Assembly (NCBI GenBank): GCA_963803975.1
Contig: CAWDOY010000005.1
Location: forward strand, 1-64,000
Direction of reading: 5' to 3'
DNA: 64,000 nt
From: an uncultured delta proteobacterium
GTDB taxonomy: Bacteria; Desulfobacterota; WTBG01; CAIYCZ01
The translations under genes were made by a program, and so were the position numbers. The notes beneath the pieces were generated by a model. That model ran no database searches and was not told the origin of the DNA. It saw only the letters and a list, made by a program, of their open reading frames with translations. Positions 4,622-42,718 of this stretch are shown here, one piece after another (the first letter of the stretch is position 1; every line of letters starts with the position of its first letter).

Positions 4622-7070
4622 CTATTTCATTTCTTTATTGGTAACGACCCGGTAACTCCTGCCATCAGTCTCCACCTGTATTGCCCCGTGTTTATCTGTC
4701 TGAAATATTTTTGCCCCTGCCTTTTGATATTCAGCTAAAATTTCAGGGTTGGGAAACGTGAGGGTGCCATACGACCGGCAGCTGAAAACCGCGACCTCCG
4801 GGGAAACGCATTTTATAAACTCCGCTGAACTGGTATTCAATCCGCCATGGTGCGGCGCTTTTATCACGGCAGCAGCGAGCGGGCCCCGCCGTGCAATTAG
4901 CTGCTGCTCTGTTTCCTGCAGGATATCTCCGCAGAACAGCACGCTCACCCTGTTGAAAGTGAGCTTCATCACCAGGGAGTTGTTGTTGGTGTCTGACTGG
5001 CTGCTGCCGCTGGAGTTTATGGCGCCCCGTACCGGGCTGAGAAAATCAATGAGCACCCCGTCGACAGTTTTTTGCGCAGACTGCTGCGAACAGACTACTT
5101 TTGCAATGTCATTATTTTCAGCTGCCTTCAGCAACCGCTGATACGATTCAAAAAAGCCCCGCTCGCCATTGAGCCACAGCTCCTGCACCTTGAAATTCTC
5201 GGCTATATACGGCAGCCCGCCGGCATGGTCCTTGTGCGGATGGCTGAGCACAGAGGAAATCAACGCGCCGTATTCCCCGGTAATAGAGAAACGGTGCAAT
5301 GACCGTTTCTCCCATATCAATGCTTTCATCCATGAACCCGCCGCCGTCAATGAGCATGGTATGGCCGCCGGGGAATTCAACCAGTGCGCAGTCTCCGGCC
5401 CCCACGTCAAGGAAGGTGACGTTGAGTGTGCCCCTGCCCTGCCGGTCATACCTGTAAAGTCCCGCCTCTATAAGAACCAGGCTGCATACACCTATAATAA
5501 AATAGCGCAGCAGCTTCTTCTCCACGCAATAGGAAAAACTAAAGACCAGCAGGTAGAAGGCTGCCAGCTCCCACAGGTGCGGCGTTGAAAGTTTAAGATC
5601 TCCGACGGGAATGCGTGACCATGCGGATGTGCAGTTGAGACATATATCGGTTAAAAATCCGGCAGCGCTGAATAACGGGGTGCTTAAGCCCGTGCTTATA
5701 AACACGGCGCCTGCTGCAAGCAGCGCCAGGGGGACGATGAGAAAGGTTACGAAGGGGATCATAATAATATTGGTAATGAAACCTGCACATGAGAAGTAGT
5801 GGAAGGTCATGGCAACGAGCGGCGCTGTGCCCAGAATTGCTGCTGCTGAAGAAAGAAGTGAGTCACGGAACATGCGCCGGCATCTTTCCAGAAAAAGATT
5901 TCTCTGCTCAAAGGGGTCCGGCTCTTTTTCCGGGAAAAGTGCCTGCCAGCGGGGAACAAGAATAATGATTGCCAGCACCGCGCTGAACGAAAGCTGAAAT
6001 GAGAGATCAAACAGGGACGCCGGCATGCAGACGAGCGTTATGAATGCCGCGAGGAACAGGGTGTGGAGCAGGTCTTCCCGCCGTCCCAGAAGAAGCGCGA
6101 CCAGGTAGCATATGACCATAATGGCTGAGCGCAGCGTGGGAATGTTAAACCCGGCAATACAGCAGTACAGGAGCACCGGGAATATCGAGAAAAAGAGCGC
6201 CAGCTTGAAAGCATTGACATAAAGCAGCATGCGGGAATACAGGCGAAAAAGGGACATGAACACAAAATATGAAAGCAGCGCAAACATGCTCACATGAAGC
6301 CCTGATATGGAGAGCAGATGCGACAGGCCGAGGCGCGAGAACTGCTCCCGTATGTCATCCGGTATGGTATCCTGCTCTCCTATGATGAGCGCCTTGAGAA
6401 CATCCCGCGACGGCGACGGCAGGGTTGCGTTCAGTTCATCTCTGATGCGGTCACGCATGCGCTCGACGAAAAGCAGAAACCGGCTGCCCTCCCCGGTCCG
6501 TATCGTTATAATGCCCCGGTCATCCTCGAGGAACGAAGTGGCGGCAATACCGCGATAGGCAAGATAGCGCACATAATCAAACCCGCCCGGGTTTTGAAAA
6601 TTCCGGGGCAGCCTGAGGGCGCAGAAAAATCTGATCCGGTCGCCATAGTGAAAACGGGTGCTCAGGCTTTTTATAGAGAGCAGTACCCGCCCGGTGAGCG
6701 CATACGAGCGCTCCCGTTCATGTATGTGGGTAACCGTGACATACAGCCTGGTGCGCGCGTCGGTGACTGCGGGGGTGCTGTCGATAACACCTTCCACGTT
6801 TACCCGTTGGCTGCCGGCATATTTCATGATATCTGATTGCAGGAGTACCGCTGGGGTATCAGGATAGAGCATAATAAATCCCAGAAGCAGGAATAAACCG
6901 AGTGCAGGGATGGTGGCAGGGATTCTTTTGCCGGCTATTACAGCGGCAAGGAATAAAACGAAGCTGAGGCCGCAGAGGAAAAGAACGGATCGCAGCGCTA
7001 AGATTTCATAATGCGCGGCAAGCAGGCCAAAGGCATAACAGATGACGATGGGAATAAGCGGCCGTTTCAT
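4622..7070 (-). CDS. comEC: DNA internalization competence protein ComEC/Rec2 (frameshift ~5250)
   Basis: NPGGFDY, HLLSISGLHV, SFQLSF, FLDVGAGD, LIDGGG, SHPHKDHAGG, NNNSLV, KAPHHG, TDKHGAI. Confidence 0.93.
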
Positions 7071-7165: not shown

Positions 7166-7983
7166 ATGAGTATTAGAATCCTCATCTACTACCATACAGC
7201 CACCGGCAATACCGGCTGGCTCACCGGGGAGATCGCGCGCCGGCTGAGAGAAAAGGGGTGTGACGTAACGCTGCGCAACATCGCGCACCAGCGGGATACC
7301 TCTGATTGAGAGCTATGACCTCACCGGGTTTGGCTGCCCGGTGATGGGCTTCAGGCCGACCTTTTCCATGACTGACTTTATTGACAAACTGCCGGCGCAG
7401 CAGGGAAAAGCTGCGTTTATCTATGTGACGTGTGCCGGTATATGCGCCAGCAGCCTGTGGATACTGTCACAACTGCTCGGCGAAAAAGGCTATGGAGTGA
7501 TTGCCGCGGAGCAATTCCGCGGAGAGGTCAGCTGGCCGGTGGCACGCGTGCCCGGTATTATCCCGGACAAAGGACGGCCCGATGAGCGGGATCTTCAAGC
7601 AATCATGCAATTCAGCGCGTGTCTCTATGACGCAGTAAAACGCCGAGTGGAGAAAGGCCCGGCCGCACCTTTTGCTGTTCCCTTTGCATTCTTCAATCCG
7701 TTTTCCTACCTGGGCCGGACAAACAAGGCAGCATACCTGCGCTCCATCATGGGCACGAAGAAGGTGGACCAGTCGCGCTGCAACCGCTGCGGCCTGTGCG
7801 AGAAATACTGCGGCAGCAGGGCCATCTCCCTTGACCCCTGGCCTGTGTTCAGTGACGCCTGCTGCGGCTGCTGGGGCTGCTACAGCATCTGCCCGCAGCA
7901 AGGCTATCTCCACGTTTATTGCGCCGAAATGGCAATATAATACAAAGGCAAACTATCTCGATGCTCTTGCAGCAGGTGATTAA
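7166..7983 (+). CDS. EFR1-type flavodoxin + 2x[4Fe-4S] ferredoxin protein (frameshifts ~7310, ~7900)
   Basis: N-terminus IYYHTATGNT..L (from 7166), GFGCPV, CNRCGLCEKYC and CCGCWGCYSICP. Confidence 0.8.
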
Positions 7984-8005
7984 AAACGGTGATTGCAGCA
8001 CGCTT

Positions 8006-9076
8006 ATGAAAAGCACCCGGACTATAGATACCGCGTTAGTGCCGCAGATAAAAAAGCGCATTGAAAAAACCCTTGGCATATATATGCGGGAGATTGAACG
8101 GCTCTACGGCCTCAGCTCGTTCTCGCCCGTGCTCTGCAACAGCATCCGGGATTTTGTCCTGCGTGACGGCAAGCGCATCCGGCCGATTCTTTTTATTATC
8201 GGCTACTCAGGATTCGCTAAAAAAGCCGTTCCCGGCCTCTTCACCTGTGCCCTGTCATTTGAGCTGCTCCATGATTTCACCCTGATACATGACGACATTA
8301 TCGACAAGGCGGACATGCGCAGGGGTAAACCCTCGGTGCATACCATTCTCAACACGTATCTGCACCCGTATAAAAAGATAAAATTCAACGGGCAGGACCT
8401 GGCCCTGGTTATCGGCGATATCCTCTATGCCATTGCCATACAGGCCTTTCTTGCTATCAGGGAAAACACCCGAAGAAAAGAGCAGGCACTGAAAAAATTC
8501 ATTGAAACCGCCATCTACACCGGGGCCGGCGAATTCGGCGAACTGCTCTACGGTATCGAGGATATTGAAAAAATAACCAAGCAGGGCATCTACCGCATCT
8601 ATGACTTTAAAACCGCCTACTACTCGTTCGCTGCGCCGCTCATTACCGGCGCCACGCTGGCAGGAGCGCGGATCGAAGAGGTAAACCGGCTTTCTCAATA
8701 CGGCGTGTACCTGGGAAGGGCCTTTCAGATAAAAGACGATATTGCCGGCATGTTCGGGGATGAAGCAGCTATCGGCAAGTCAATACTCACCGATCTGCAG
8801 GAAGGGAAAAAGACGATTCTCGTTTGGTATGCCTATCGCCACGCAACGGAGCGTGACCGGCGCATCATCAAAAGGATTCTCGCGCAGCAGCGCATCCGCA
8901 CCGCTGACCTTTTGACCATGCGCAGGATTGTCACTGCTTCACGGGCCCTTGCGTTTGCAGAGAAGGAAATTTCTTCGCTGTTGCATAACGCCCGGCGCAT
9001 AACAGCAGAGCTCGCTATGAAGCAGAGTTTCAAGACAGTTCTCAACGCCTATTCTTCTGCGCTGCTCCAGGGGTAG
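8006..9076 (+). CDS. crtE: Geranylgeranyl diphosphate synthase (polyprenyl synthetase, IdsA/CrtE-like)
   Basis: GKRIRP, FTLIHDDIID..RRG, KTAYYSF, FQIKDD, DLQEGKKT; carotenoid gene context. Confidence 0.85.
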   Translation: MKSTRTIDTALVPQIKKRIEKTLGIYMREIERLYGLSSFSPVLCNSIRDFVLRDGKRIRPILFIIGYSGFAKKAVPGLFTCALSFELLHDFTLIHDDIIDKADMRRGKPSVHTILNTYLHPYKKIKFNGQDLALVIGDILYAIAIQAFLAIRENTRRKEQALKKFIETAIYTGAGEFGELLYGIEDIEKITKQGIYRIYDFKTAYYSFAAPLITGATLAGARIEEVNRLSQYGVYLGRAFQIKDDIAGMFGDEAAIGKSILTDLQEGKKTILVWYAYRHATERDRRIIKRILAQQRIRTADLLTMRRIVTASRALAFAEKEISSLLHNARRITAELAMKQSFKTVLNAYSSALLQG

Positions 9077-9368
9077 CGCGGTCCTTTTCCTTGAAATATT
9101 CCCAGAAGATGATGCTCATGGTGACCATGCTGAAGCCGAACAGAAAATCTTCCAGGGGGATGGTGCCGATCCGGTAGCCAAGGAACTGCTGCGGGTTATA
9201 CATGACGATCCAGCTCGTCAGATAGCCGTTAACAAAAAACTTGAAACAGAGAATGATGGCAAAAAAGAGATAGAATATCTTCCTGCGCAGCACGTCTATG
9301 CCGCTTATCCGGTCAAGCAGGATTGTTATGATTACTGAAAAACAGGCGAGCAGGGTGTACTCTTTCAT
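9042..9368 (-). CDS. crtYd: Heterodimeric lycopene beta-cyclase subunit (CrtYd-like)
   Basis: Small hydrophobic protein with GYRIGTIPLEDFLFGF motif. Confidence 0.8.
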   Translation of the reverse strand: MKEYTLLACFSVIITILLDRISGIDVLRRKIFYLFFAIILCFKFFVNGYLTSWIVMYNPQQFLGYRIGTIPLEDFLFGFSMVTMSIIFWEYFKEKDRATPGAAQKNRR

Positions 9369-9673
9369 GACCTTTTTTTGCCAAGGTAATTGACAACCTC
9401 CCAGGTGAAGATGCAGCAGAAGGGAATGACCACAAAAAAAAGTCCTTCCTCGACCGGCATGTTAAAAATGCGGGCTTGCCAGACTCCTTCCGGGTTAAAC
9501 CACCAGTGCCCCCGGTAAATGGCAACCACATCCCACAGCCAGAAGAGTATAACTATCAGGGTAATGCTGTACAGAAGCGCTTTTATATTGCGATAAAAGC
9601 GCAGCGGCGGCCAGAAGCTGGCGAGCACTGGTATGATGCCGGAAATGATAAGGACATACATATAGGCTGACAT
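9365..9673 (-). CDS. crtYc: Heterodimeric lycopene beta-cyclase subunit (CrtYc-like)
   Basis: WDVVAIYRGHWWFN and MPVEEGLFF motifs; ATGA overlap with the partner gene. Confidence 0.8.
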   Translation of the reverse strand: MSAYMYVLIISGIIPVLASFWPPLRFYRNIKALLYSITLIVILFWLWDVVAIYRGHWWFNPEGVWQARIFNMPVEEGLFFVVIPFCCIFTWEVVNYLGKKRS

Positions 9674-9729
9674 AGTGTATTTATTGTATATTGTTCACTC
9701 AGCATGTTCAACAAAAACCTGATAAAAAC

Positions 9730-10563
9730 ATGACCGTATCCGAAAGCACCCCCGACAGCCGGCTGGCACGCGGCTTTGCCATGGCCCGCTCCATTACCCG
9801 GGAGCACGGCAGAACATTTTATTTTGCCTCGCACCTGCTTCCGCCTGATAAGCGGGCTGCTGCCTATGCAGTATATGCCCTGTGCCGTATCAGCGATGAT
9901 ACGGTTGACCGGAACAACTCCATGGCAGTGCGGGAAGAGCTTGCGAAGGTGCGTGCTACCATACACGCTGCCTACAGTGGCGCGGCAACAGCAGATGACC
10001 TGCTGCTGGCATTTCAGGATACCATTCACCGCTATGCCATTCCCCGGCGCTGTTTTGACGAGCTGATCGAAGGCATGTACATGGATTTATCCATAAACTC
10101 CTATGAGACCTTTGATGAGCTGTACCAATACTGCTACCGGGTTGCCGGCGTGGTGGGGCTCATTATGCTAAAAATATTCGGGGCTGCCAGCCCTGCGGCT
10201 GAAGAGCGCGCCGTGGAGCTCGGTGTGGCCATGCAGCTCACTAATATTCTGCGCGATATCAGAGAGGATTACGAGCGGGGACGCGTCTATCTCCCCCGGG
10301 AGGAGCTGCGGCGGTTCGGGGTCAGCGATGATGGCTTGCGGAACGGCATTGTTGATGACAAATTTAAGGCGCTCATGGCCTTTCAGATCAGGCGCGCGCG
10401 TGACTACTACCAACAGTCATCCGCGGGCATCAGCATGATAGCAGACCGGAGGTCGCGTCTGGTCGTATGCGCCATGAAAGATATATACGGGGCAATTCTG
10501 CAGGCGATTGAAAAGAACAAATGCGATGTCTTTTCCGTCCGCGCGCGTGTTACGACCCCGTGA
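9730..10563 (+). CDS. crtB: Phytoene synthase (C-terminus probably continues to ~10642 via an indel)
   Basis: TFYFAS, YALCRISDDTVD, YCYRVAGVVG, AMQLTNILRDIREDYERGRVYLP. Confidence 0.92.
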   Translation: MTVSESTPDSRLARGFAMARSITREHGRTFYFASHLLPPDKRAAAYAVYALCRISDDTVDRNNSMAVREELAKVRATIHAAYSGAATADDLLLAFQDTIHRYAIPRRCFDELIEGMYMDLSINSYETFDELYQYCYRVAGVVGLIMLKIFGAASPAAEERAVELGVAMQLTNILRDIREDYERGRVYLPREELRRFGVSDDGLRNGIVDDKFKALMAFQIRRARDYYQQSSAGISMIADRRSRLVVCAMKDIYGAILQAIEKNKCDVFSVRARVTTP

Positions 10564-10752
10564 AAAACTGATGCTTCTGCTTGGCATCCTGCTGAAGGGT
10601 GAATGGGTGAGTCGGCCCCTCGACTATGCTCGGGGCAGGTGAATCGGTGAATGGTGCTTGGGGACCCTTGACTCAGACGGCAACAGGCACAAAGGTTCAC
10701 TGAATGGTGACGCTGACTGGCAATAGTTGATAGCTCGACTTGGAGATAACCT

Positions 10753-11595
10753 ATGAAAATTAATGTTGCCCGCTACGGGGGCTTCTGTTTCGGGGTGCGG
10801 CGTGCCATAACGCTTGCCATGAAAACTGCCGGTGCGGATACGAAAGTCTGCATGCTCGGGGATATTGTGCACAATGAGGATGTCATTAAACAGGTTGAGC
10901 AGGCGGGCATCAGGCGCATAAAACGTCTGGGAAAGGGAACCGAAAAAATACTGCTGCTGAGCGCCCACGGCACCCCCACGTCGGTCACCGGACAGGCCCG
11001 GCAGCGGGGCTACCGGATTGTTGACGCAACCTGCCCCATGGTGAAGGGCATCCATAAAGTTGCCCGGAAGATGGAGCAGCAGGGGTATGCCATTATTATA
11101 ATCGGCGACCGGGCCCACGACGAAGTGCATGGCATTGTCGGGCAGCTGCAAAAAAAGCCGATCGTTATTGACCGCATGGACGCGGTGCCGCATCGCAGGC
11201 TGCAAAAAATAAAAAAGGCCGCAGTGGTGGTGCAGTCCACCCAGAACGCCGAGAATGTTCTGAAAATAATCGATGTGATAAAAGAGGATGTCGGCGAGCT
11301 GCAGTTCTTTAATACCATCTGCCAGCCGACCAGAATCCGCCAGGCGGAAATAAGGACCATGCCCCTGGAAAATGATGTGATGGTGATAATCGGCTCCCGC
11401 ACCAGCGCCAACACGCAGCGCCTGTGTGAAATATCCCATTCCTTGAACAGCAGGACGCACTGCGTTGAATCAAAGCGCGATCTGAAACGCGCATGGTTCA
11501 AGGGAGTGCGCAGCGTGGGAGTGGCATCCGGCGCATCAACGCCTGATGCGTCCATACAGGACGTTGTCGACTATCTGCGCAAACTCAGTAAATAG
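10753..11595 (+). CDS. ispH: 4-hydroxy-3-methylbut-2-enyl diphosphate reductase
   Basis: GFCFGV, IVHN, AHG, DATCPMV, HDEV, NTIC, GSRTSANT, SGASTP. Confidence 0.95.
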   Translation: MKINVARYGGFCFGVRRAITLAMKTAGADTKVCMLGDIVHNEDVIKQVEQAGIRRIKRLGKGTEKILLLSAHGTPTSVTGQARQRGYRIVDATCPMVKGIHKVARKMEQQGYAIIIIGDRAHDEVHGIVGQLQKKPIVIDRMDAVPHRRLQKIKKAAVVVQSTQNAENVLKIIDVIKEDVGELQFFNTICQPTRIRQAEIRTMPLENDVMVIIGSRTSANTQRLCEISHSLNSRTHCVESKRDLKRAWFKGVRSVGVASGASTPDASIQDVVDYLRKLSK

Positions 11596-13042
11596 GTCTG
11601 TTCTTGTTGCTGACAAGGTCTGCGACAATCCGGGAGCTTGCGATAACAACCGGCAAGCCGCCTCCCGGCTGCGTGCTGCCCCCGGCATAATAAAGCCCCG
11701 GCAGGTCCGGGTCGATGTTGGGAGGCCGGAAAAACGCGCTCTGCATGAGGGTGTGGGACAGGCCGAAGGTAGCGCCATGGAGCAGGTTATAGCGGGTGGT
11801 GAAGTCCTGCGGGTAAAAAATGTGCTCCACCTCTATTAATTCTTCCAGGTTGATTCCCGTCATCCGGTAAATCTTTTCAAAAACAATCTTCCTCAACCGC
11901 TGCTCGTGCTGATAAAAATCCTCTTTCGGATTATCGAGGTTCGGCAGCGGCACCAGCAGATACACGATGTCCCTGCCCGCGGGAGCAAGCGACGGGTCGG
12001 TAACGGTCGGCACATGGATGTAGAGCGAGGGGTCATCGGGTATTATTTTATCCGTGAAAATCTGTTGGACGTTTTTTTTCAAATCCTGCGCGAACAGCAG
12101 ATTATGGTGGCTCAGCCCCGCTACCTTTGTTTTAAGGCCGAGATACATGAGGTAGGTAGAGCAGGAATAGTCATACCGGGGAATGCTTCGCGATAAGAGC
12201 TTGTTCTGCGCGTACGGGTAATCCGCATTGACCACGATGGTATCATAGTGCAGATCGTTTCCGGCCGCGCTGAGCTGCAATCCATTGCTGTTGCGCCCGA
12301 TTTTCTGCACCTCGCAGTCATAGTGAAAGGTCGCCCCGAACTTCCTGCAGAGCTTCTCCAGCGCGAGCGGTATCTGATACATGCCGCCGCGGGGGTGAAA
12401 GATCTTCTGCACATGGTCGGCGTACGTTATGACGCTGTAAAACGCCGGCGCGTCAAACGGTGACACGCCGATGAACATTGATTCAAAGGTAAAAGCATAG
12501 CAGAGCTTGTCGCTTGAGAAAAACCGTTTGGCGAATTTCCAGTACGACTCCAGGGCTCTTAATTTTTTAATCAGCAGCCAGTACTGGGGATTGATGAGCG
12601 CTTTTTTGGTATAGCAGTTATTCATGAGCGGCCGCACGGTGTCATAAATGCGGGCGGTCTCTGCTATGAAGGCATCAAACGCGCGGCTGCTGCCTTTTTC
12701 TATCTTCTCCAGTTCCTGCTTTGTTTTTTCGCTGTCCCGGTACACGGTAAAGGCCGTGCCGTCCGGATAAAATATCTTGTAGTGCTCGTCCAACGGCATG
12801 AAGTCAAGGTAGTCCGCAAGCTTCTCTCCGCAGAAAGTAAACAGCTCTTCAAAGAAATCGGGCATGAGCACAAACGAGGGCCCGGTATCAAACAGAAAGC
12901 CCCGGTCTTCTATGATATTGTTGCGCCCGCCGCAGCGCGAGAGCTTTTCAAAAACTTCCACATCATTGCCGAGATATGCCAGCCGCGCTGCTGTTGCCAG
13001 CCCTCCCACTCCCGCACCCACAATGGCCGTCTTTTTTTTCAT
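11585..13042 (-). CDS. crtI: Phytoene desaturase
   Basis: GAGVGGLA FAD motif, FDTGPSFVLMP, PRGGMY, GATFGL..QSAFFRP, GGSTQPGGGLP. Confidence 0.92.
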   Translation of the reverse strand: MKKKTAIVGAGVGGLATAARLAYLGNDVEVFEKLSRCGGRNNIIEDRGFLFDTGPSFVLMPDFFEELFTFCGEKLADYLDFMPLDEHYKIFYPDGTAFTVYRDSEKTKQELEKIEKGSSRAFDAFIAETARIYDTVRPLMNNCYTKKALINPQYWLLIKKLRALESYWKFAKRFFSSDKLCYAFTFESMFIGVSPFDAPAFYSVITYADHVQKIFHPRGGMYQIPLALEKLCRKFGATFHYDCEVQKIGRNSNGLQLSAAGNDLHYDTIVVNADYPYAQNKLLSRSIPRYDYSCSTYLMYLGLKTKVAGLSHHNLLFAQDLKKNVQQIFTDKIIPDDPSLYIHVPTVTDPSLAPAGRDIVYLLVPLPNLDNPKEDFYQHEQRLRKIVFEKIYRMTGINLEELIEVEHIFYPQDFTTRYNLLHGATFGLSHTLMQSAFFRPPNIDPDLPGLYYAGGSTQPGGGLPVVIASSRIVADLVSNKNRPIY

Positions 13043-13144
13043 GGCAGTGCTCCTTCTGCACGGTTTAAAGCGTTGTTATTATGGTATAAACGAGCTCCCC
13101 TGCTGCTGTCAATAACCGTTAAATCGCTGCCCGGATGAACGGGT

Positions 13145-13597
13145 TTATTTCAACTCTATTGCTATGGTCATCTGTGGGGCATTGAGCGTGAAAGCAGCTC
13201 TGGCAAAAGACGGCGGCCCGAACCGCCCCCGCGCATTGTTCGAGAACCCGTACAGCTCAACCGGCATGCCGGCAAAATTGGTATCCAGTTTTGAGTTTTC
13301 ATTTTCATCATGGAAAGCCTTGATGCTGTATTTGCCGTACGGCATGTTTTTAAATACCCATTCAGCCTTTTTGCTTTTTAGTTCAGCCGCGGCAGTGCAG
13401 AACTCTTTCATTTTGCCGGTATATTCATCCTCAGAACGGCACGCACAGAGCTTTACCGTGCCCTGATCATTCTTAACTCCCGTCAGCTGCACCGTAATGC
13501 TTCCTGTTTGATTATTTAATATATGAGCATCCTCTGCATGAGAAGTTTCAATCGACAAAAAGACTATTAAAAAAAACAGTGCGATAGCGTGTCTCAT
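13145..13597 (-). CDS. DUF2141 family secreted protein
   Basis: Signal peptide; YSIKAFHDENENSKLDTNFAGMPVELYGFSNN..FGPPSF. Confidence 0.85.
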   Translation of the reverse strand: MRHAIALFFLIVFLSIETSHAEDAHILNNQTGSITVQLTGVKNDQGTVKLCACRSEDEYTGKMKEFCTAAAELKSKKAEWVFKNMPYGKYSIKAFHDENENSKLDTNFAGMPVELYGFSNNARGRFGPPSFARAAFTLNAPQMTIAIELK

Positions 13598-13636
13598 GAT
13601 TATTTTCCCCGTCTGGTTGAATATAAAAGCATGGTT

Positions 13637-14866
13637 TTAGCCCACGGTTTTCTCAAGAAAGCGGTTAAACCGTTCAACAACATTATACCTGCTGAATATA
13701 TATTTCATTTTCTGCGCTGCTTCACGATAGGCTGATTCCTCAATCAGCATCTTCACCGCCTGCCGGACTTTCTCTGCGCTAAGGCTCCCGCTGCGCAGCA
13801 GAATACCGCAGCCCGCTTTTTCAATGGCGGTCATCGCCAGATACTGGTCAAAATTTGTCGGAATGCCGAGCACCGGCGCCCCTTCACTCAGGGCCTGGTA
13901 TGCCGTGCCGGCTCCGCCATTGCAAATAACCATCGCGGAGCGCCTGGCGGCGATGTCACCCGGAACAAATTCACCGGCATGGACGTGCTCATCCTTTACT
14001 GTTGTATCATATCTCCCGGCTGTGGCAGCCAGGATTGTTACCGGGAGGTCACGGAGACCTTTTAATATTGCAGGGAGCAGTGTTACTTTTCCCGATGAAC
14101 CCATGTTTACATAAATAAGCGGGCGCGATCCATCAATTTCATTCCACCTTGAAGGCGTCGCCATGTCCGGTGACCACAGAATCGGGCCGAGAAAAATATG
14201 CGTGTCAGGATAATTCTTCAGCGGTATAAGCTCCGCTGCGTCAGCATACAGGGTAAAATCCCCCCAGGTGAGCATTTCAGGCAGACTGCCAATCGCCGGC
14301 AGCCCGAATTCCCGGCGCACCCGGTTAAGCGGTTGCGTAAACCGCGAGAAAAAGGCGGGAAGCGCCTTCGGGAAATAGCGCGCCGCAATCTTTTCCCCCA
14401 GCAGCCGCACCATAAAGTGGTCCGGCAGGGGAAAGGAATCACGCACGGCAAACGGGCTCCAGTAGGCATTAATCAGCGCGGCATAGGGCACCTGGCAGAC
14501 CGGCGCACTCACCGCAAGGGAAAACCGCGCATCACCGATGATAATATCCGGTTTCACTGCCTCTATTAATTGCCGGTCTGCTGCAACATACCGCCGCAGC
14601 AGCTTTTCAGTATAAAATGATTTCCCCTTTTCAGCAGCTGACAAGAACGTTTTCTTATCCATCGTGAAAAGCTGCCATTGCTGAAAGGATGTCCGGCCGA
14701 AGATTATCGGGTCAAATTCAGAGCAGGCAAAATGCACCTCGTACTTCTGTCGATCCAGGCCCCGTGCCAGCACCAGCAGGCGCACCAACTGCGAGAGGGT
14801 GGTGTTCTCTACAACAAACAAAATGCGTTTCAGCTGCCTTGATGGTCCTTCTGCCACACTATTCAT
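13637..14866 (-). CDS. GT1/MGT-family glycosyltransferase (similar to mycobacterial PGL/p-HBAD type); candidate carotenoid glycosyltransferase
   Basis: RILFV.E..TL, NAYWSP, GPILWSP, IYVNMGSSG, ICNGGAGT.YQAL..G.P, NFDQ. Confidence 0.75.
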   Translation of the reverse strand: MNSVAEGPSRQLKRILFVVENTTLSQLVRLLVLARGLDRQKYEVHFACSEFDPIIFGRTSFQQWQLFTMDKKTFLSAAEKGKSFYTEKLLRRYVAADRQLIEAVKPDIIIGDARFSLAVSAPVCQVPYAALINAYWSPFAVRDSFPLPDHFMVRLLGEKIAARYFPKALPAFFSRFTQPLNRVRREFGLPAIGSLPEMLTWGDFTLYADAAELIPLKNYPDTHIFLGPILWSPDMATPSRWNEIDGSRPLIYVNMGSSGKVTLLPAILKGLRDLPVTILAATAGRYDTTVKDEHVHAGEFVPGDIAARRSAMVICNGGAGTAYQALSEGAPVLGIPTNFDQYLAMTAIEKAGCGILLRSGSLSAEKVRQAVKMLIEESAYREAAQKMKYIFSRYNVVERFNRFLEKTVG

Positions 14867-14895
14867 GCGAAAGATTTATAAAGCGTGCCATTATT

Positions 14896-15345
14896 CTAAT
14901 CAGCATCATATCTGCTGCTGGCAAATAAAAAGCCGAATGCCACTTCCTGCTGCTGATAGAATTTCTGGTGATGCGTAGCGTGGGCATTGATAATACGCTG
15001 CAGATATCTTGTCCCGGGTTTCAATTTCAGGAATTTTATTCTTCTATGAAACATGACATCGTGAAACAAAAAATAGCAAACACCGTACAGCGTGACGCCT
15101 ATGCCAGCGACAAGCACCAGCGGCATCGCATAGGTTGTCCCATAATATATTAGTACAATTGCGATCGAGCTGAAAAACAGGGTGAATATATCATTTTTTT
15201 CCAGCCAGCGTTCATGATAGCGGTGATGATCCTCGTGCAGAATCCACAGAAACCCGTGCATGACATACTTGTGCATGAACCAGGCAAAGAATTCCATAAA
15301 CATAAAGGCACCGGTTATAACCATTGCAAATAATACTATCTTCAT
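14896..15345 (-). CDS. crtZ: Beta-carotene 3-hydroxylase
   Basis: MEFFAWFMHKYVMHGFLWILHEDHH, EKND, FHDVMFHRR, HATHH, FGFL His boxes. Confidence 0.9.
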   Translation of the reverse strand: MKIVLFAMVITGAFMFMEFFAWFMHKYVMHGFLWILHEDHHRYHERWLEKNDIFTLFFSSIAIVLIYYGTTYAMPLVLVAGIGVTLYGVCYFLFHDVMFHRRIKFLKLKPGTRYLQRIINAHATHHQKFYQQQEVAFGFLFASSRYDAD

Positions 15346-15608: not shown

Positions 15609-16940
15609 ATGGAAAACAGGCTCATATACACCGTTTCTGAATTAACCGCTCAGATAAAAGACTCCCTTGAAACTCTTTTTCCCAACATCTGGGTTGAAGG
15701 TGAGGTGTCAAACCTGCGCATCCCCTCCTCCGGCCACTACTATTTCACCCTGAAAGACCCCCAGTGCCAGATGCGTGCCGTCATGTTCCGCTCCCAGCAG
15801 CGTTCGCTGCAGTTCACGCTCGAAGACGGCATGGCGGTTGCCTGCCGGGGCAGGGTTAATGTCTATGAGCCGCGCGGTGAATACCAGCTGCTCATTGAAG
15901 CCCTGGAGCCGAAAGGCAAAGGCGCTCTCCAGGTCGCCTTTGAACAGCTGAAAAAAAAGCTGCAGGAAGAGGGCCTGTTTGACGCTGCCCGCAAGAAGCC
16001 CCTGCCGCTGCTCCCCGCACTAATTGCCCTCATCACGTCCCCGACCGGCGCGGCAGTGCGCGATATTCTGAATATCCTGAACCGGAGATTTCCCAATCTT
16101 GAGATTCTGATTGTACCGGTAAACGTGCAGGGAGAAGAAGCCCCAGGTGAAATCGTCGAGGCGCTGAAGCTGGTAAATGCCGAGCAGGCAGCGGATGTTA
16201 TCATCGTGACCCGGGGCGGCGGATCGCTTGAAGACTTATGGGCCTTTAATACTGAACAGGTGGCCCGGGCGATCTATAATTCCCGCATCCCGGTTGTTTC
16301 GGCCGTCGGTCATGAAATAGATTTTACCATTGCCGATTTTGTTGCTGACCTGCGCGCTCCTACTCCATCAGCGGCCGCCGAGCTCGTGGTAAAAGATAAA
16401 AAAGATCTCGTGCAGCTGCTCTCGCACTACCGCCTACGCCTGCGCAAATCCCTGTCCCACTGCGTGCAGCAGGAGAAAGCGAGAATGCGCTATTTTGCCC
16501 TGCGCCTCCAGTCCCCGGGAAAGCGGCTGGTGCAGCCCCGGATTCAGTGTGACGACTTGCACGCGCGTCTGGCAACGGCCATGCTGAACCAATACCGGGA
16601 GAACCGGGCCCTGGTCCGCCATCGTCACGATACCATACTCCTGCGCTCTCCGCAGCGGCTGCTTGAAAATAACCGGAGCACGCTTCGCTTTCTGGAGAAA
16701 GCGCTGAAACAGCTTCCGCACGCTCTTTCAGATCAATGCAGGAGCAGGTTGAAAAATGCCATTGAAAAGTTGAACGTCCTCAGTCCCTTGAATATTCTCG
16801 AGCGCGGCTACTCTATCACCCGGCTCGCAGCTTCCGGAGCCATTGTAAAAAGCGCCCGGCAGCTTCATGCCGGAGACAGCCTGGATATAAAGCTCAAGAC
16901 CGGGGAAGCTTATTGCATTGTGGATAAGGTCGTACTATAA
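15609..16940 (+). CDS. xseA: Exodeoxyribonuclease VII large subunit
   Basis: WVEGEVSN, SGHYYFTLKD, ITSPTGAA, RGGGSLEDLWAFN, GHEIDFT, APTPSAAAE. Confidence 0.97.
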   Translation: MENRLIYTVSELTAQIKDSLETLFPNIWVEGEVSNLRIPSSGHYYFTLKDPQCQMRAVMFRSQQRSLQFTLEDGMAVACRGRVNVYEPRGEYQLLIEALEPKGKGALQVAFEQLKKKLQEEGLFDAARKKPLPLLPALIALITSPTGAAVRDILNILNRRFPNLEILIVPVNVQGEEAPGEIVEALKLVNAEQAADVIIVTRGGGSLEDLWAFNTEQVARAIYNSRIPVVSAVGHEIDFTIADFVADLRAPTPSAAAELVVKDKKDLVQLLSHYRLRLRKSLSHCVQQEKARMRYFALRLQSPGKRLVQPRIQCDDLHARLATAMLNQYRENRALVRHRHDTILLRSPQRLLENNRSTLRFLEKALKQLPHALSDQCRSRLKNAIEKLNVLSPLNILERGYSITRLAASGAIVKSARQLHAGDSLDIKLKTGEAYCIVDKVVL

Positions 16941-16948
16941 TCAATTAT

Positions 16949-17096
16949 TAACCGCGAAGGCCGCCGAGATAGATAATGTATTTTGCTCGTAGAGAGCCTG
17001 CATAAATCATACAATGCATTTTTAATTATTTTCTCTGCGACCTCTGCCATTCGGCCCCGAGTTGCTCATGGCCGAGGGGCTATCTCTGCGGTAAAT
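16949..17096. repeat. Intergenic palindromic repeat (aaccgc...ctctgcggtaaa) with nested hairpin
   Basis: ctctgcgacctctgc...tctctgcggt flanks gccccgag...cgaggggc. Confidence 0.4.
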
Positions 17097-17116
17097 TACT
17101 TTTAAGGTAAAAAACA

Positions 17117-17359
17117 ATGGCAAAAAAACGATTTGAAGAAGCGCTGCAGGAGCTTGAATCCATTGTGCAGCGGCTCGAGGATGGCAATCTGTCCCTGGAT
17201 GATTCGCTGGCGCTGTTTGAAGAGGGGATTAAGCTCTCACGGCTTTGTGCTCAGCGACTTGATGAAGCTGAGAAAAAAATAGAGCTGCTCTTAAAAGATG
17301 AAACCGGCGCCCTGTACCGGCAGCCCTTTACCCCGGAGGATGAAAACGCTGATACCTGA
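17117..17359 (+). CDS. xseB: Exodeoxyribonuclease VII small subunit
   Basis: FEEALQELESIVQRLEDGNLSLDDSLALFEEG. Confidence 0.96.
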   Translation: MAKKRFEEALQELESIVQRLEDGNLSLDDSLALFEEGIKLSRLCAQRLDEAEKKIELLLKDETGALYRQPFTPEDENADT

Positions 17360-17409
17360 GATGATTGTGTGCGCGCAGGCGCGCTGTTCAGGTTGTCTCC
17401 TGTTACTCG

Positions 17410-18299
17410 ATGGACTTGCAGAAATATCTTGCTGAAAAAAAGGCCGCTGTTGATCAGGCGCTTGAAACCGTAATCGCTCCTGAATCAACATACCCTGTCA
17501 GTATCCACAAAGCCATGCGCTACTGCCTCTTTGCCGGGGGCAAGCGGCTGCGGCCGATACTTGCCCTTGCCGCAGCCGAGGCGGTCGGGGGGGACGGGCG
17601 GACCATTCTCAGGGAAGCATGCGCTCTTGAGCTTGTCCACACCTATTCTCTGGTGCATGATGACCTGCCGGCAATGGACAACGATGACTATCGGAGAGGT
17701 GTTCCGACAACGCATACCGTGTTCGGCGAAGCGCTGGCAATTCTTGCCGGTGACGCACTGCTTACAGAAGCCTTTAAGCTCCTTGCAGGCGGGAGGAACT
17801 CCGGGCAGCATACAGCAGCGCAGCTTCTATCCATAATAGAGCTTCTTGCCGAGGCCTGCGGTTCACGGGGGCTCATCGGCGGACAGGTCGTAGACCTCGA
17901 GTCAGAGGGCAAGGCCATTGACGCGAGCGTTCTTGATTATATCCATAGCCAAAAAACCGGGAAGCTCATCATCGTATCGGTGGATCTGGAGCACGGCTTG
18001 CCGGCGGCTCTCCGAATCAGGTCGAGTGCCTGCGAAGCTACGGCGCTGCCATAGGCCTTGCGTTCCAGATCGCTGATGATATCCTGGATGTGACAGGCTC
18101 AAGCGCTGTCCTGGGGAAAAAAACAGGCAGCGATCAGAAACAGCAAAAGGCCACCTATCCGGCACTCTGCGGCCTGGAGGAAGCGAGAAGGCGGCAGCGC
18201 GCCCTCTGCGAGGATGCGGTGGCAGCGCTTAAAGCATTTGATGAAAAGGCCGATCCGCTGCGCTCCATTGCCCGCTATATTATAGAGCGGGATTCATAG
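17410..18299 (+). CDS. ispA: Farnesyl diphosphate synthase (frameshift ~17985)
   Basis: GKRLRP, YSLVHDDLPAMDNDDYRRG, GGQVVDL; second frame has FQIADDILDV and KATYP. Confidence 0.92.
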
Positions 18300-18318
18300 G
18301 GAAAGGGATGCATCCGTT

Positions 18319-20238
18319 ATGGAACGATTGCTCGACCGGATCAATACCCCGCAGGATCTGAAAAAACTGAATTTAAAGCAGCTCACCCCGCTGGCTGAAG
18401 AAATCCGCGAGCTCATGGTTGACACCATATCCCGGACCGGGGGCCATCTTGCCGCAAGTCTGGGGGTGGTTGAACTCACCATCGCACTGCATTATGTTTT
18501 CGATACTCCCACTGACAAGCTGGTCTGGGATGTCGGCCATCAGACCTATGCCCATAAGATTCTCACGGGCAGGAAAGAATCCTTTCCCACCATCCGCCAG
18601 CATGGCGGTATTTCCGGCTTCCCCAAACGGGAAGAAAGCCCCTTTGACAACTTCGGCACCGGACACAGCAGTACGTCCATATCTGCGGCGCTGGGCATGG
18701 CGGAAACGTGCGCGCTCTCCGGTGAGGAGCACAAAGTTATCGCCGTCATCGGTGATGGTTCTCTCATGTCCGGTATTGCCTTTGAGGGCTTAAACCAGGC
18801 CGGCCATCTGAAACGGGACTTCATTGTCGTCTTAAATGACAATGAGATGTCCATTTCGCCCAACGTGGGAGCGCTCTCATCATACCTGTCACGGCTCATC
18901 TCCGGCCAGACCTACAATACCTTCCGGGAGGAGGTGAAGACCATCCTGCAGCGCATTCCCGGTATAGGAAAATCAATGTACCGCCTGGCCAAGCATTCCG
19001 AGGAGTTTGTCAAAAGTATCTTTGTGCCCGGCCTTATCTTTGAGGAGCTTGGCTTTAAGTATATAGGTCCCATTCTCGGTCACCGCATAGACCATCTTGT
19101 TGATACCTTCAGAAACATAAAAAAGCTGCACGGCCCCCTGCTGGTGCACATCATCACGAAAAAGGGCAAAGGGTACAAGCCGGCTGAAACCGATCCGGTG
19201 CTGTTTCACGGGCTCGGGCCCTTTCAAAAAGAGACCGGACAGCCTCTGTCAGTCAAGACCGGCGGCCCTTCATATACTAAAGTATTTGGCGATACTCTTA
19301 CCAGGATCGCCCGGGAGGACAGCCGCATCATTGCACTTACCGCAGGCATGACCGGCGGTACCGGGCTGGATCAGTTTGCCCGGGAATTTCCTGATCGTTT
19401 TTATGACGTGGGGATCGCAGAACAGCATGCCATAACCTTTGCCGCGGGCATGAGCATTGACGGTTACCGCCCGGTGGTCGCCATCTATTCAACGTTTCTG
19501 CAGAGGGCCTATGATCAGATAGTGCATGACGTGTGTCTGCAGAACCTGCCGGTCATTTTCATGCTGGACCGGGCCGGCATTGTGGGTGAAGACGGCCCCA
19601 CCCATCACGGCCTGTTCGATATTTCTTACCTCCGGCACATACCCAACATGGTCCTGATGGCGCCCAAAGATGAAAATGAGCTGCAGCACATGATCTATAC
19701 CGCGGTACATCTGAAGTCGCCGGTTGCCATCCGCTATCCGCGCGGCAACGGGACCAATGTGCCGCTTGATGACTCCTTCCAAAAGCTCTCCGTTGGCAAA
19801 GCAGAGCTGCTCAGAGATGGGGCTGCAGCAACAATCTGGGCGATCGGTAACACCGTCCACCCGGCGCTGCGTGCAGCAGAACTTCTGGAAGAAGAAGGCA
19901 TTTCCTGCAGCGTGATAAACGCCCGTTTTGTCAAACCCCTTGATGAGGAGCTGCTCTGCAGCCTTGCTGAAAAGAGAGCGCCGCTCATCACGGTTGAAGA
20001 AAACGTCCTGCATGGAGGGTTCGGCTCGGCAGTACTTGAAGCCCTCCAGCGCCATAACCTCACGCAGGTAAAGGTCTCCTGTCTGGGCATACCGGATGAG
20101 TTTGTGGAGCAGGGGCCGCAGGCAGTACTGCGCGCGCACCATGGCATTGACGCCGAAGGCATTCGCGCGGCCGTAAAAAAATTGCTCTACGGAGAAGACT
20201 CTCACCTTGGCCAGTACAAAAAAACAGCCCTTGGATGA
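18319..20238 (+). CDS. dxs: 1-deoxy-D-xylulose-5-phosphate synthase
   Basis: GGHLAASLG, WDVGHQ, GHSSTS, IGDG..NDN, DVGIAEQHA, DGPTHHG. Confidence 0.98.
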   Translation: MERLLDRINTPQDLKKLNLKQLTPLAEEIRELMVDTISRTGGHLAASLGVVELTIALHYVFDTPTDKLVWDVGHQTYAHKILTGRKESFPTIRQHGGISGFPKREESPFDNFGTGHSSTSISAALGMAETCALSGEEHKVIAVIGDGSLMSGIAFEGLNQAGHLKRDFIVVLNDNEMSISPNVGALSSYLSRLISGQTYNTFREEVKTILQRIPGIGKSMYRLAKHSEEFVKSIFVPGLIFEELGFKYIGPILGHRIDHLVDTFRNIKKLHGPLLVHIITKKGKGYKPAETDPVLFHGLGPFQKETGQPLSVKTGGPSYTKVFGDTLTRIAREDSRIIALTAGMTGGTGLDQFAREFPDRFYDVGIAEQHAITFAAGMSIDGYRPVVAIYSTFLQRAYDQIVHDVCLQNLPVIFMLDRAGIVGEDGPTHHGLFDISYLRHIPNMVLMAPKDENELQHMIYTAVHLKSPVAIRYPRGNGTNVPLDDSFQKLSVGKAELLRDGAAATIWAIGNTVHPALRAAELLEEEGISCSVINARFVKPLDEELLCSLAEKRAPLITVEENVLHGGFGSAVLEALQRHNLTQVKVSCLGIPDEFVEQGPQAVLRAHHGIDAEGIRAAVKKLLYGEDSHLGQYKKTALG

Positions 20239-20953
20239 GCTGCTCGTGAAACAGGGGCTTGCGCTCTCCCTTACCCAGGCCCGCGCGCTTATCATGGCCG
20301 GAAAGGTTGTGGTCGATGATCACGCCATTGACAAACCCGGAACATTGGTCGCGCTCGCCGCTCAAATCCGCCTTAAAAGCCGCCCCGACCGCTATGTAAG
20401 CAGAGGCGGAACCAAGCTTGAAAAACCCCTCGACACCTTTAACATTGACGTTACCGGTAAAGTCGTAATGGATGTGGGTGCTTCCACCGGCGGCTTTACC
20501 GACTGCCTCCTGCAACGGGGTGCTCGAACCGTTTATGCAATCGATGTGGGCTATGGCCAGCTTGCCTGGAAGCTCAGAGAAGACCCTCGCGTGATACCAC
20601 TTGAGCGAACCAATATCTGCAACCTTACCGCGCAGGATATTCCTGCCCCGCCTGATCTCGCGGTCATTGACGTATCATTTACCTCGCTGAAAAAAATCTG
20701 GCCGCCGGTCATCGCCCTTCTGAAGCCGCAGGGAGAGCTGCTGAGCCTGGTGAAGCCGCAGTTTGAGGCAAATAAAAAGGATGTTGAGGCAGGGGGATTG
20801 ATACGAAGCATAAAAAAATATCAGGAAGTCATGCAGACCATGGTCGAGACCGCGTGCGCCCTGTCACTGCATGTCGTCGGCATCATGGAGTCGCCCGTTA
20901 GGGGGCAGAAAGGAAACCGGGAATTCTTTTTGTGCGCGGTAAAGAAGGCTTAA
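20207..20953 (+). CDS. tlyA: TlyA family rRNA methyltransferase
   Basis: S4 domain, YVSRGGTKL, DVGASTGGFTD, DVSFTSL, KPQFE, GNREF. Confidence 0.95.
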   Translation: MASTKKQPLDELLVKQGLALSLTQARALIMAGKVVVDDHAIDKPGTLVALAAQIRLKSRPDRYVSRGGTKLEKPLDTFNIDVTGKVVMDVGASTGGFTDCLLQRGARTVYAIDVGYGQLAWKLREDPRVIPLERTNICNLTAQDIPAPPDLAVIDVSFTSLKKIWPPVIALLKPQGELLSLVKPQFEANKKDVEAGGLIRSIKKYQEVMQTMVETACALSLHVVGIMESPVRGQKGNREFFLCAVKKA

Positions 20954-39767: not shown

Positions 39768-39797
39768 CTTACACCTCATAAATTTTCCACGGCGGAA

Positions 39798-40439: not shown

Positions 40440-40476
40440 ACAAACATTCCTCATGCTTTTTAGCGTTAATCCTGCC

Positions 40477-40993: not shown

Positions 40994-41000
40994 GGTTGCG

Positions 41001-41750: not shown

Positions 41751-41804
41751 ATGGTATCCGCCTCTTGCTGAATGGGTTGTCAGCCCTTCATGCGCATGGT
41801 TATC

Positions 41805-42299: not shown

Positions 42300-42342
42300 T
42301 GCTTATCACCTCATCCTGGTTTCATCCTGTACCTACCCTATC

Positions 42343-42357
42343 GCACAAACCATTCCA
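42343..42357 (-). promoter_or_regulatory. Putative sigma54 promoter of cassette A
   Basis: TGGAATGGTTTGTGC (GG-N10-GC), 44 nt from the fimT start; motif and distance conserved in cassette B. Confidence 0.6.
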
Positions 42358-42668: not shown

Positions 42669-42718
42669 AAAAAAGCCCTCTGCTGTGTTACCTGAAGCTA
42701 TTACACAGCGGAGGGCTA
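42669..42718 (-). terminator. Intrinsic terminator after pilY1 copy B
   Basis: agccctccgctgtgt...acacagcagagggct followed by tttttt on the minus strand. Confidence 0.7.

Follow-up and report, generated by a model that had tools for sequence, protein, structure and literature searches.

We consider it rather probable that the gene cluster described here is an old, family-wide locus that yields beta-carotene without oxygen and, when oxygen is present, likely zeaxanthin and a zeaxanthin glycoside, that its pigment protects the membrane, and that it holds the sole ispH of its host. This host is an uncultured, largely anaerobic sediment bacterium. In the proposed pathway, Dxs, encoded in a flanking operon, and IspH would provide IPP and DMAPP, with the native flank supplying both the entry to the MEP pathway and FPP; GGPP synthase would form the C20 precursor, CrtB would convert it to phytoene and CrtI would convert phytoene to lycopene, on which CrtYc/CrtYd would form beta-rings. 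CrtZ would then add hydroxyl groups at positions 3 and 3' using O2 and ferredoxin, possibly the EFR1 protein, and the GT1 glycosyltransferase, aided by the DUF2141 protein, would attach a sugar, giving a pigment that may protect the membrane at sediment surfaces exposed to light and oxygen. The products, the number of desaturation steps, the ring type, the sugar acceptor and the electron donor are all predicted here, as are the oxygen-conditional step and the protective role.

Gene layout and assembly

All ten genes that a sequence-only reading had named within about 8 kb of the window (the whole stretch of DNA analysed, 64,000 nucleotides) were confirmed by profile matches and motifs (Table 1). 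The same reading had proposed that CrtE-B-I-Yc/Yd-Z leads to zeaxanthin, a pathway logic that the sequences support as a prediction.

Table 1. Features of the carotenoid cluster (7166-15345) and its flanks
Feature	Position	Strand	Evidence and remarks
comEC, left flank	4622..7070	-	split at about 5252; cluster border
EFR1-family flavodoxin-ferredoxin	7166..7940	+	NF038196 E 3e-17; frame split near 7306-7310
Polyprenyl synthase, predicted GGPP synthase (CrtE/IdsA type)	8006..9076	+	PF00348; best NCBIfam matches GGPP/IdsA models, all below cut-off
crtYd, heterodimeric lycopene cyclase subunit	9042..9368	-	PF18916 E 7e-17; TIGR03462 over cut-off
crtYc, heterodimeric lycopene cyclase subunit	9365..9673	-	PF18916 E 9e-11; TIGR03462 over cut-off
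crtB, phytoene synthase	9691..10563 as assembled, probably to 10642	+	PF00494 E 8e-83
ispH	10753..11595	+	TIGR00216 over cut-off
crtI, phytoene desaturase	11585..13042	-	TIGR02734 419 bits vs cut-off 238
DUF2141 protein, probably exported	13145..13597	-	PF09912
GT1 glycosyltransferase	13637..14866	-	PF06722 over cut-off
crtZ, non-heme di-iron beta-carotene 3-hydroxylase (predicted)	14896..15345	-	His motifs; 40% to Pantoea hydroxylase
Native xseA-xseB-ispA-dxs-tlyA operon, right flank	15609..20953	+	cluster border

Contigs of close relatives lack the indels found at 5252 (comEC), 7306-7310 (EFR1), 10556 (crtB tail) and 17987 (ispA), and the crtB tail, read in the next frame, matches the tails of relatives; these breaks are therefore probably assembly errors, most plausibly of two bases in EFR1 and of one base in crtB. 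Since the gene order is repeated in independent contigs, namely L130 (83-97% identity) and L135, the cluster is not chimeric. Its borders also recur, with xseA adjoining the cluster in L130 and in genome G001 (locus L003, where DUF2141 directly adjoins xseA), and comEC in L013, L014 and L135. Chimeric contig edges, one objection that the sequence-only reading had raised against itself, can thus be set aside.

Core carotenoid genes

The predicted GGPP synthase, which is 48-58% identical to its counterparts in Omnitrophota-type loci, has the first aspartate motif FTLIH-DDIID, a pattern that we take to be the signature of type-I GGPP synthases. CrtB carries both aspartate motifs of a phytoene synthase, DDTVD and NILRDIRED. 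Identities to the Pantoea enzymes are 33% for CrtB, 29% for CrtI and 40% for CrtZ; with CrtI at only 29%, the number of desaturation steps is not fixed. The runner-up model for CrtI was the bifunctional CrtI/CrtD (379 bits vs a cut-off of 640), and no second CrtI-family gene was found in the host genome, all other matches having E-values of at least 8e-8.

Two adjacent PF18916/TIGR03462 genes identify a lycopene cyclase, the beta type of its rings being a prediction; an acyclic, cyclase-free product is not expected for this host, PF18916 being present. The Atlas clusters nearest to crtYc likewise carry PF18916, and a search of plasmids found no characterised relative of CrtYc. Among the 42 genomes of the class, 16 have heterodimeric or fused cyclases with PF18916, vs none of 19 genomes outside it, which makes cyclic carotenoids likely in the class. 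No lycopene elongase (UbiA family; C50 pathway) was found in the cluster and no elongase-like UbiA in the host, whose two UbiA loci (a decaprenyl-phosphate phosphoribosyltransferase and one without a name) were not matched by a sister-family UbiA that lies next to the cyclase; on this result, the cluster does not match the C50 pathway (CrtEb/LyeJ with CrtYe/Yf). Besides crtZ, the cluster contains no other ring- or end-group-modifying gene.

Accessory genes

While searches of Pfam and NCBIfam gave no FA_hydroxylase match for crtZ, its product shares 40% identity with the hydroxylase of the Pantoea crt cluster across 138 aa, and many of its homologues are named beta-carotene 3-hydroxylase. The four histidine motifs by which the available text of PMC2288588 defines CrtZ are present, H25/H30, H37/H40/H41, H95/H100 and H122/H126 being invariant in an alignment of 27 sequences; according to the same text, CrtZ-type enzymes require O2 and ferredoxin. 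Two of the four family genomes (G000 and G003) have both crtZ and GT1, neither gene being found in G001 and G002; the two genes are accessory and are kept or lost jointly. In L130, L131, L132 and L135, crtZ lies upstream of GT1.

The GT1 aligns with the glycosyltransferase of the Pantoea crt cluster over its C-terminal 215 aa only, at 24%, and was thus rejected as a CrtX orthologue; no Pantoea plasmid is among the top GT1 matches listed or tallied, though crtZ occurs on 95. Glycosylation, which the sequence-only reading had proposed, is therefore argued from gene context. In that context, distant GT1 homologues adjoin crtI/B/Y in 31 of 72 loci, and in 22 of the 34 loci that span 6 kb or more; DUF2141, a recurrent partner, occurs in 28 of the 72 and, in 10 of the best 120 matches, forms one protein with the GT1 homologue. 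The GT1 thus belongs to a subfamily that is often found in carotenoid clusters and often fused to DUF2141. Its acceptor may differ, given that crtZ occurs in none of the 72 distant loci and that two close homologues (L133 and L134; 74-75%) sit outside any crt cluster. Clusters with the same GT1 that lack crtZ hold a 190-aa histidine-rich membrane protein.

The EFR1 protein, a candidate electron donor for both IspH and CrtZ, has an intact 287-aa homologue at L014 and is retained at L013, where crtZ is missing. In two RNA libraries, contigs span portions of GT1, crtZ and crtI, although contigs cannot show transcription.

Single-copy ispH

The ispH of the cluster is the single IspH match in the host genome, and the ancestral cmk-ispH-rpsA slot (contig C25) is empty of ispH; the sequence-only reading had overlooked this single-copy status. 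In the tree, the gene groups with the ispH copies that accompany the Omnitrophota-type crt module. Each of the three other family genomes has one ispH (70-77% identity), and 16 of 17 sister-family genomes keep the same type, with the adjoining crt genes mostly gone from the site. The essential gene may hold the locus in place, tying an accessory pathway to it.

Age and origin

CrtI, IspH and both cyclase subunits are encoded in all four family genomes; the three other than the host each have a crtI orthologue (76-92%) and two PF18916 matches, and the identities of cluster genes track kinship. Where dS is unsaturated, dN/dS is 0.08-0.50 for nine cluster genes (0.14-0.19 for GT1; 0.10-0.27 for crtZ), which indicates purifying selection. 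GC3 of the core genes is 0.62-0.69 vs a genome median of 0.60, with lower values in crtZ (0.52) and DUF2141 (0.50). The closest outside relatives are Omnitrophota-labelled (25 of 32 outside loci), and the crtI and ispH trees place the cluster in the same clades as the Omnitrophota loci. The sequence-only reading had called the pathway mosaic and probably acquired; mosaic origin stands, and the sequences argue for an acquisition that is old and family-wide, not a fresh island. It had also called CrtYc/Yd typical of Actinobacteria and some other phyla; no Actinobacteria are among the 40 loci compared.

Host lineage and oxygen

A Desulfobacterota-like host, as previously proposed, is supported, and its gene content fits Ca. 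"Anaeropigmentia": comA, comB, comD and comE (archaeal-type CoM genes) lie side by side on contig C37, ACS alpha/beta on contig C54 indicate a Wood-Ljungdahl pathway, and a cbb3 oxidase is encoded with an ACIII-like complex, recognised as Qrc/Act-like homologues scoring below cut-offs, along with cytochrome bd. ComA occurs in 4/4, 16/17 and 8/11 genomes of families f1, f2 and f4, and above cut-off in none of the 29 remaining genomes.

The cbb3 and bd oxidases speak against reading the host, a presumed anaerobe in the sequence-only reading, as a strict one, although neither was found in its three family relatives; both types are rare in the class (heme-copper oxidase in 4 and bd in 6 of 42 genomes). 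G003 (98% complete) has both crtZ and GT1 although neither type of oxidase was found in it, so that regular contact with O2 is only a possibility for the family.

With regard to light, the host encodes a class II photolyase, and photolyase occurs in 8 of the 10 class genomes that encode two cyclase subunits vs 6 of the other 32, counts in which kin are not independent. As the sequence-only reading had observed for the window, photosynthesis and CarH genes are missing: type I and II reaction centres (PF00124 and PF00223) were not found in the 98% complete genome in a search whose controls were detected, and no CarH/LitR (MerR-B12 photoreceptor) was found, the three PF02607 matches being two corrinoid proteins and a transporter fusion and a CarH query matching only an N-terminal MerR stretch. 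Rhodopsin (PF01036; 0 of 42 class genomes) and blh (PF15461; none in the host) were also not found, in a search whose controls stayed silent. The best DNA match is a cave metagenome (pieces about 99% identical), which argues against light being essential.

Discussion

An unlikely alternative to the zeaxanthin reading is that a carotene (beta- or gamma-) serves as a dark membrane modulator, that CrtZ rarely acts, and that GT1 and DUF2141 glycosylate another lipid or small molecule. That G001, G002 and each of the 32 Omnitrophota-type loci show the core but neither crtZ nor GT1 fits this, as do the oxidase-free relatives, the cave metagenome, and a GT1 that is not a CrtX and also occurs outside crt clusters; purifying selection on crtZ, its joint retention or loss with GT1, and the crt genes present in the majority of the longer GT1-subfamily loci weigh against it. 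Since the CrtI/CrtYc/CrtYd clade is uncharacterised, the product might also be a different glycosylated xanthophyll, e.g., a monocyclic 3-hydroxy-gamma-carotene glycoside or one with a more desaturated backbone. To this we give a somewhat smaller chance: the distance of CrtI from Pantoea CrtI, its second-ranking CrtI/CrtD model and the lack of a characterised CrtYc relative on plasmids leave room for it, but no second CrtI-family gene was found in the genome, and the cluster has no further ring- or end-group modifier.

That the locus persists because of its ispH and the supply of prenyl units, with the pigment genes as departing passengers, is very improbable. Although the single-copy ispH, its retention in the sister family after most adjoining crt genes were lost, and stops that interrupt one cyclase subunit in G028 would suit such a history, dN/dS well below 1 for all crt genes in close and distant relatives largely refutes it for the family, and several independent contigs preserve the order of the genes. 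There is practically no chance that the cluster is a recent island or an assembly chimera; the lower GC3 of crtZ and DUF2141 and the many indels might suggest one, but synteny in L003, L130 and L135, with recurring comEC and xseA borders, refutes it, and identities follow kinship while core GC3 matches the host.

Beyond the zeaxanthin reading, a fuller scenario, which is unlikely as a whole, would have CrtZ act as an O2-triggered switch in a mostly oxidase-lacking lineage, beta-carotene stored in anoxia being converted on the arrival of O2 to a xanthophyll glycoside that spans the membrane, via an undescribed GT subfamily with DUF2141; the locus would have come from Omnitrophota and been fixed as its ispH replaced the native gene, and the 190-aa protein would act as a carotenoid hydroxylase or hydratase that had gone unrecognised.

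The chemistry as such is probably familiar, and pigmentation had been predicted for the lineage; the prediction is extended here to a cyclic product and an embedded sole ispH. If the host belongs to Ca. "Anaeropigmentia", the picture of that class shifts from acyclic lycopene to cyclic carotenoids, with hydroxylated and probably glycosylated carotenoids in one family. Beta-carotene and zeaxanthin are read as phototroph markers in sediments, and a non-phototrophic, largely anaerobic source, as predicted here, bears on that use. With its sole ispH, the locus also clearly exemplifies the coupling of an accessory pathway with an essential gene, and a non-CrtX carotenoid glycosyltransferase, DUF2141 and a non-CrtZ ring-modifying enzyme are candidates open to tests in E. 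coli.

Comparison with known systems

The predicted pathway logic is that of the Pantoea crtEXYIBZ locus (L209), which we take to be the zeaxanthin-diglucoside cluster. The host differs in its heterodimeric CrtYc/Yd in place of CrtY, type-I-like GGPP synthase, non-CrtX GT1 with DUF2141, embedded ispH and largely anaerobic life. Omnitrophota loci have the order crtI-ispH-crtB-crtYc-crtYd-[TPR]-GGPPS-[UbiA]; the six-gene order and orientation of the host core are matched in 19 of 32 Omnitrophota-type loci, at best-segment identities of 43-69% except for one ispH fragment (36%). The host lacks their TPR and MenA-like UbiA genes, and EFR1, DUF2141, GT1 and crtZ, found in none of the 32, are its additions.

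As far as the available texts describe them, Myxococcus xanthus (PMC9304148) and Brevibacterium linens (PMC9229179) share the CrtYc/CrtYd cyclase type with the host, and myxobacterial clusters also include a possible glycosyltransferase (PMC9304148); in contrast to these two, the host cluster lacks CarH/CarA, crtC, crtD and crtU and has crtZ. In Sphingomonadales, DUF2141 lies beside crtG, a co-location with a carotenoid gene already noted, with function unknown, in the accessible part of PMC5989583; in the host, it pairs not with crtG but with GT1, to which it is fused in relatives. Finally, in the portion available, Murphy et al. (10.1101/2021.03.22.436540) predicted carotenoid capacity for the Desulfobacterota class Ca. 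"Anaeropigmentia" and, finding no CrtY/L, inferred acyclic lycopene. The host shares with these 3.96 +/- 0.74 Mb genomes crtB, crtI, archaeal-type com genes, the Wood-Ljungdahl pathway, ACIII, cbb3, bd and the lack of a reaction centre; unlike that prediction, its heterodimeric cyclase, crtZ and GT1 point to a cyclic, hydroxylated and possibly glycosylated product.

Results

All ten genes listed in the sequence-only reading, i.e., those for an EFR1 flavodoxin-ferredoxin, GGPP synthase, CrtYd, CrtYc, CrtB, IspH, CrtI, DUF2141, the glycosyltransferase GT1, and CrtZ, are present in the cluster, which is bordered by comEC on one side and by the native xseA-xseB-ispA-dxs-tlyA operon on the other. 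Identification of crtZ relies on His motifs that are invariant or nearly so in an alignment of 27 homologues and on 40% identity to the Pantoea hydroxylase; a family-model search gave no match of its own. Since contigs of close relatives lack them, the breaks that interrupt comEC, EFR1, the crtB tail, and ispA are probably assembly errors. Borders common to relatives, identities that track kinship, and core-gene GC3 resembling that of the host rule out a recent island or a chimeric join. Values of dN/dS were 0.08-0.50 for nine genes against three other loci (L130, L135, and L013), using only comparisons with unsaturated dS and the gene present. Judged from sequence, the cluster is real, old and maintained, and is probably functional. 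A promoter scan found 17 sites, with 9.4 expected, and identified no regulator box. Contigs from RNA libraries of relatives span parts of the cluster, but contigs cannot show transcription.

Coordinates of features in the window, in the host genome (G000), and in related genomes and loci
Location	Positions	Strand	Feature
Window	7166-15345		carotenoid cluster
Window	34581-50016	-	some ten long ORFs (one encoding 1476 aa); no NCBIfam match at E 1e-15; upstream of the pilus/T2SS-like genes
Window	53577-62983		pilus/T2SS-like genes
G000:C1	160122-161153		further squalene/phytoene-synthase-like gene, distant from crtB (27%)
G000:C14	213894-223001		ACIII/Qrc-like complex, then ccoN and fused ccoO-cytochrome c near contig end
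G029:C1 (f3)	1333045-1340303		tandem crtI-family genes beside photolyase; separate carotenoid locus, same class
G037:C40 (f3)			as in G029
L130	449-3692		nikR and cbiMQO in xseA-crtZ gap
L064 (G003)	7636-8046		nikR and chelatase in xseA-crtZ gap
L135	13-7952		CobN/BchH chelatase before crtZ; MMPL, LolA-like, DUF1302, U32-family protein between crtZ and GT1
L064, L123			as in L135
L138	9203-9775	+	190-aa membrane protein

Across 61 genomes (42 of the host's class and 19 outer genomes), crtI orthologues were found in all three other genomes of the host family, f1 (76-92%), and in 4 of 11 genomes of family f4 (62-64%), and a more distant CrtI (about 35% identity) in 14 of 17 genomes of the sister family, f2. 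PF18916 cyclases occur in 16 of the 61, every one inside the class (f1 4/4, f2 8/17, f4 4/11). The accessory tail is far rarer: crtZ (2/61) and the GT1 orthologue (2/42) are confined to the same pair, G000 and G003, and neither was found in G001 and G002 (91% and 89% complete); in G001 (locus L003), DUF2141 directly adjoins xseA. Four of eight close metagenome loci carry crtZ before GT1, and two start inside GT1 and run on into DUF2141-crtI. In the other two, L133 and L134, GT1 homologues at 74-75% identity stand without crt genes, with a TIGR00267 neighbour in the latter. The gap between xseA and crtZ is a hot spot for insertions. U32 proteins, one of which lies between crtZ and GT1 in some loci and may bear on the carotenoid, include O2-independent hydroxylases.

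GT1 is not CrtX, to which it has 24% identity over the C-terminal part only. Among the best 80 of 452 confirmed metagenome loci with GT1, 72 are distant (44-53% identity, median GC 67%); crtI, crtB, or crtY lies beside GT1 in 31 of these 72 and in 22 of the 34 that reach 6 kb or more. DUF2141 is present in 28 of the 72, CarH in 14, and crtZ in none. Ten GT1-DUF2141 fusions occur among the top 120 protein homologues. Together, these data support, without proving, a carotenoid as acceptor of GT1. A passage of an earlier paper noted DUF2141, of unknown function, beside crtG (PMC5989583).

Within the same best 80 of 452, a 190-aa protein is encoded in L138 and 23 further loci among L137-L208; it is found in 19 of the 20 distant GT1 loci with crtB, and crtZ in 0 of these 20. 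Its invariant residues are D74, H78, H95, E138, H141, E154, H158, and H165, it is modelled with confidence as a bundle of membrane helices (pLDDT 89), and its closest Atlas cluster is mostly Myxococcota. It has no Pfam, NCBIfam, CrtZ profile, or PDB sequence match and is a candidate hydroxylase or hydratase distinct from CrtZ.

In G000, no ispH other than that of the cluster was found. An outer-phylum genome (G043) has the order aroA-cmk-ispH-rpsA; on G000 contig C25 the same genes are adjacent without ispH, with only ~170 bp from cmk to rpsA. In 27 of 42 class genomes (f1 4, f2 16, f4 7), no ispH but the cluster type (at least 49% identity) was found, and matches at 29-37% occur in families f3, f5, and f6, in G004 and G039, and in 18 of 19 outer genomes. 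The two types split with 100/99 support in a tree of 54 rows, of which only 4 are native-type and from which de-duplication dropped G000 and G002. IspH catalyzes the last MEP step, and since the sole ispH lies inside it, the carotenoid locus likely cannot be lost whole; f2 has kept ispH with most neighbouring genes gone. An ispH may also lie within the Algoriphagus crt cluster, which a passage of a paper did not confirm.

The host genome (4.25 Mb, 57 contigs, 50% GC, 98% complete, 2% contaminated) encodes acetyl-CoA synthase, adjacent comA, comB, comD, and comE, a cbb3 oxidase adjoining an ACIII/Qrc-like complex, cytochrome bd, and a class II photolyase. That the host is a sulfate reducer was considered and rejected; dsrA was not found in G000. 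ComA was found in f1 (4/4), f2 (16/17), and f4 (8/11), and exceeded the cut-off in 0 of the 29 remaining genomes. The sequence-only reading saw no photosynthesis, rhodopsin, or CarH/LitR gene in the window. Type I and type II reaction centres (with responsive controls) and CarH were not found in G000; rhodopsin and blh searches gave no match, but their controls were silent too.

Discussion

The predicted route runs from IPP/DMAPP through GGPP, phytoene, lycopene, beta-carotene, and zeaxanthin to a glycoside. Up to beta-carotene, O2 would not be needed as a substrate if CrtI can hand electrons to quinone. EFR1, which stays in loci without crtZ, is a plausible electron donor to CrtZ, and the simplest reading would be that hydroxylation is conditional on O2 exposure; a passage on CrtZ-type enzymes gives O2, iron, and ferredoxin as required (PMC2288588). 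The host had been presumed an anaerobe; G000 is predicted to be able to respire or scavenge O2, and neither heme-copper nor bd oxidases were found in G001-G003. Heme-copper oxidases occur in 4 and bd oxidases in 6 of 42 class genomes; within the host's order, the former were not found outside G000 (20 further genomes). Oxidases are ruled out as a family-wide explanation for CrtZ, as G003 carries crtZ without either type. Photolyase accompanies the two-subunit cyclase (8 of 10 genomes vs 6 of 32 others, kin not being independent), and in f4 crt genes adjoin photolyase, DUF523/DUF1722, msrAB, and lipocalin genes, pointing to light and oxidative stress; near-identical pieces in a cave metagenome count against this reading.

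With regard to origin, a named-genome scan with crtI gave 40 loci, of which 32 were used; the eight left out are a distant Anaerolineales locus and seven that carry the label Thermodesulfobacteriota, delta proteobacterium, or Proteobacteria. The 32 are labelled Omnitrophota (25), Planctomycetales (5), Patescibacteria (1), and unnamed (1); in 19, the full six-gene core matches the window in order and orientation, and crtZ, GT1, DUF2141, and EFR1 were found in none of the 32. In both trees, the Planctomycetales-labelled loci and the Patescibacteria-labelled one among L015-L052 are scattered between those of Omnitrophota, whose synteny they share, and these labels may be wrong. The crtI of f1 and f4 nests within the Omnitrophota-type clade (support 100). 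The mosaic origin put forward in the sequence-only reading is supported, with an old acquisition. The tree places crtI of f1 and f4 apart, which may reflect two transfers into the class, but a single shared origin is not rejected (AU test, p 0.196). Omnitrophota are the likely donor, the direction being only moderately supported because the module is rare in the phylum of the Omnitrophota genome G064 (crtI orthologue 3/81 genomes, ispH at 45% or more 12/81, both including G064); a phylum-wide crt module is unsupported, this being a minority trait, and a third donor is possible.

In the Omnitrophota loci, a TPR protein gene separates crtYd from the GGPP synthase gene. A C50 pathway, prompted by UbiA in these loci, was rejected: that UbiA is MenA-like (NCBIfam), lies beyond GGPP synthase, and has no host counterpart. 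Six f2 loci (L103, L107, L108, L109, L111, and L112) each pair a UbiA prenyltransferase, ~30% identical to that of Omnitrophota, with a lone protein of 235-270 aa that bears one cyclase domain. The pair may belong to a route to elongated (C45/C50) carotenoids, or the UbiA may be a quinone prenyltransferase.

The carotenoid chemistry is of a known kind. Literature searches, with most subscription journals outside coverage, found nothing joining Desulfobacterota and crtZ and, by title or abstract start among the matches listed, nothing on this crt module in Omnitrophota. New as far as searched are the relationship to the Omnitrophota loci, the replacement of the native ispH, the GT1-DUF2141 pairing, and the putative cyclic, hydroxylated, probably glycosylated variant. 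Host gene content, rather than a tree, matches the description of Ca. "Anaeropigmentia", a lineage whose pigmentation was predicted in 2021; in an excerpt of that paper (10.1101/2021.03.22.436540), lycopene is predicted from crtB and crtI and taken as acyclic since CrtY/L is missing. If the host class is the published class, that conclusion probably stems from a search that missed heterodimeric cyclases. While acyclic lycopene was predicted there, the cluster described here is predicted to yield a cyclic, hydroxylated, and probably glycosylated product.
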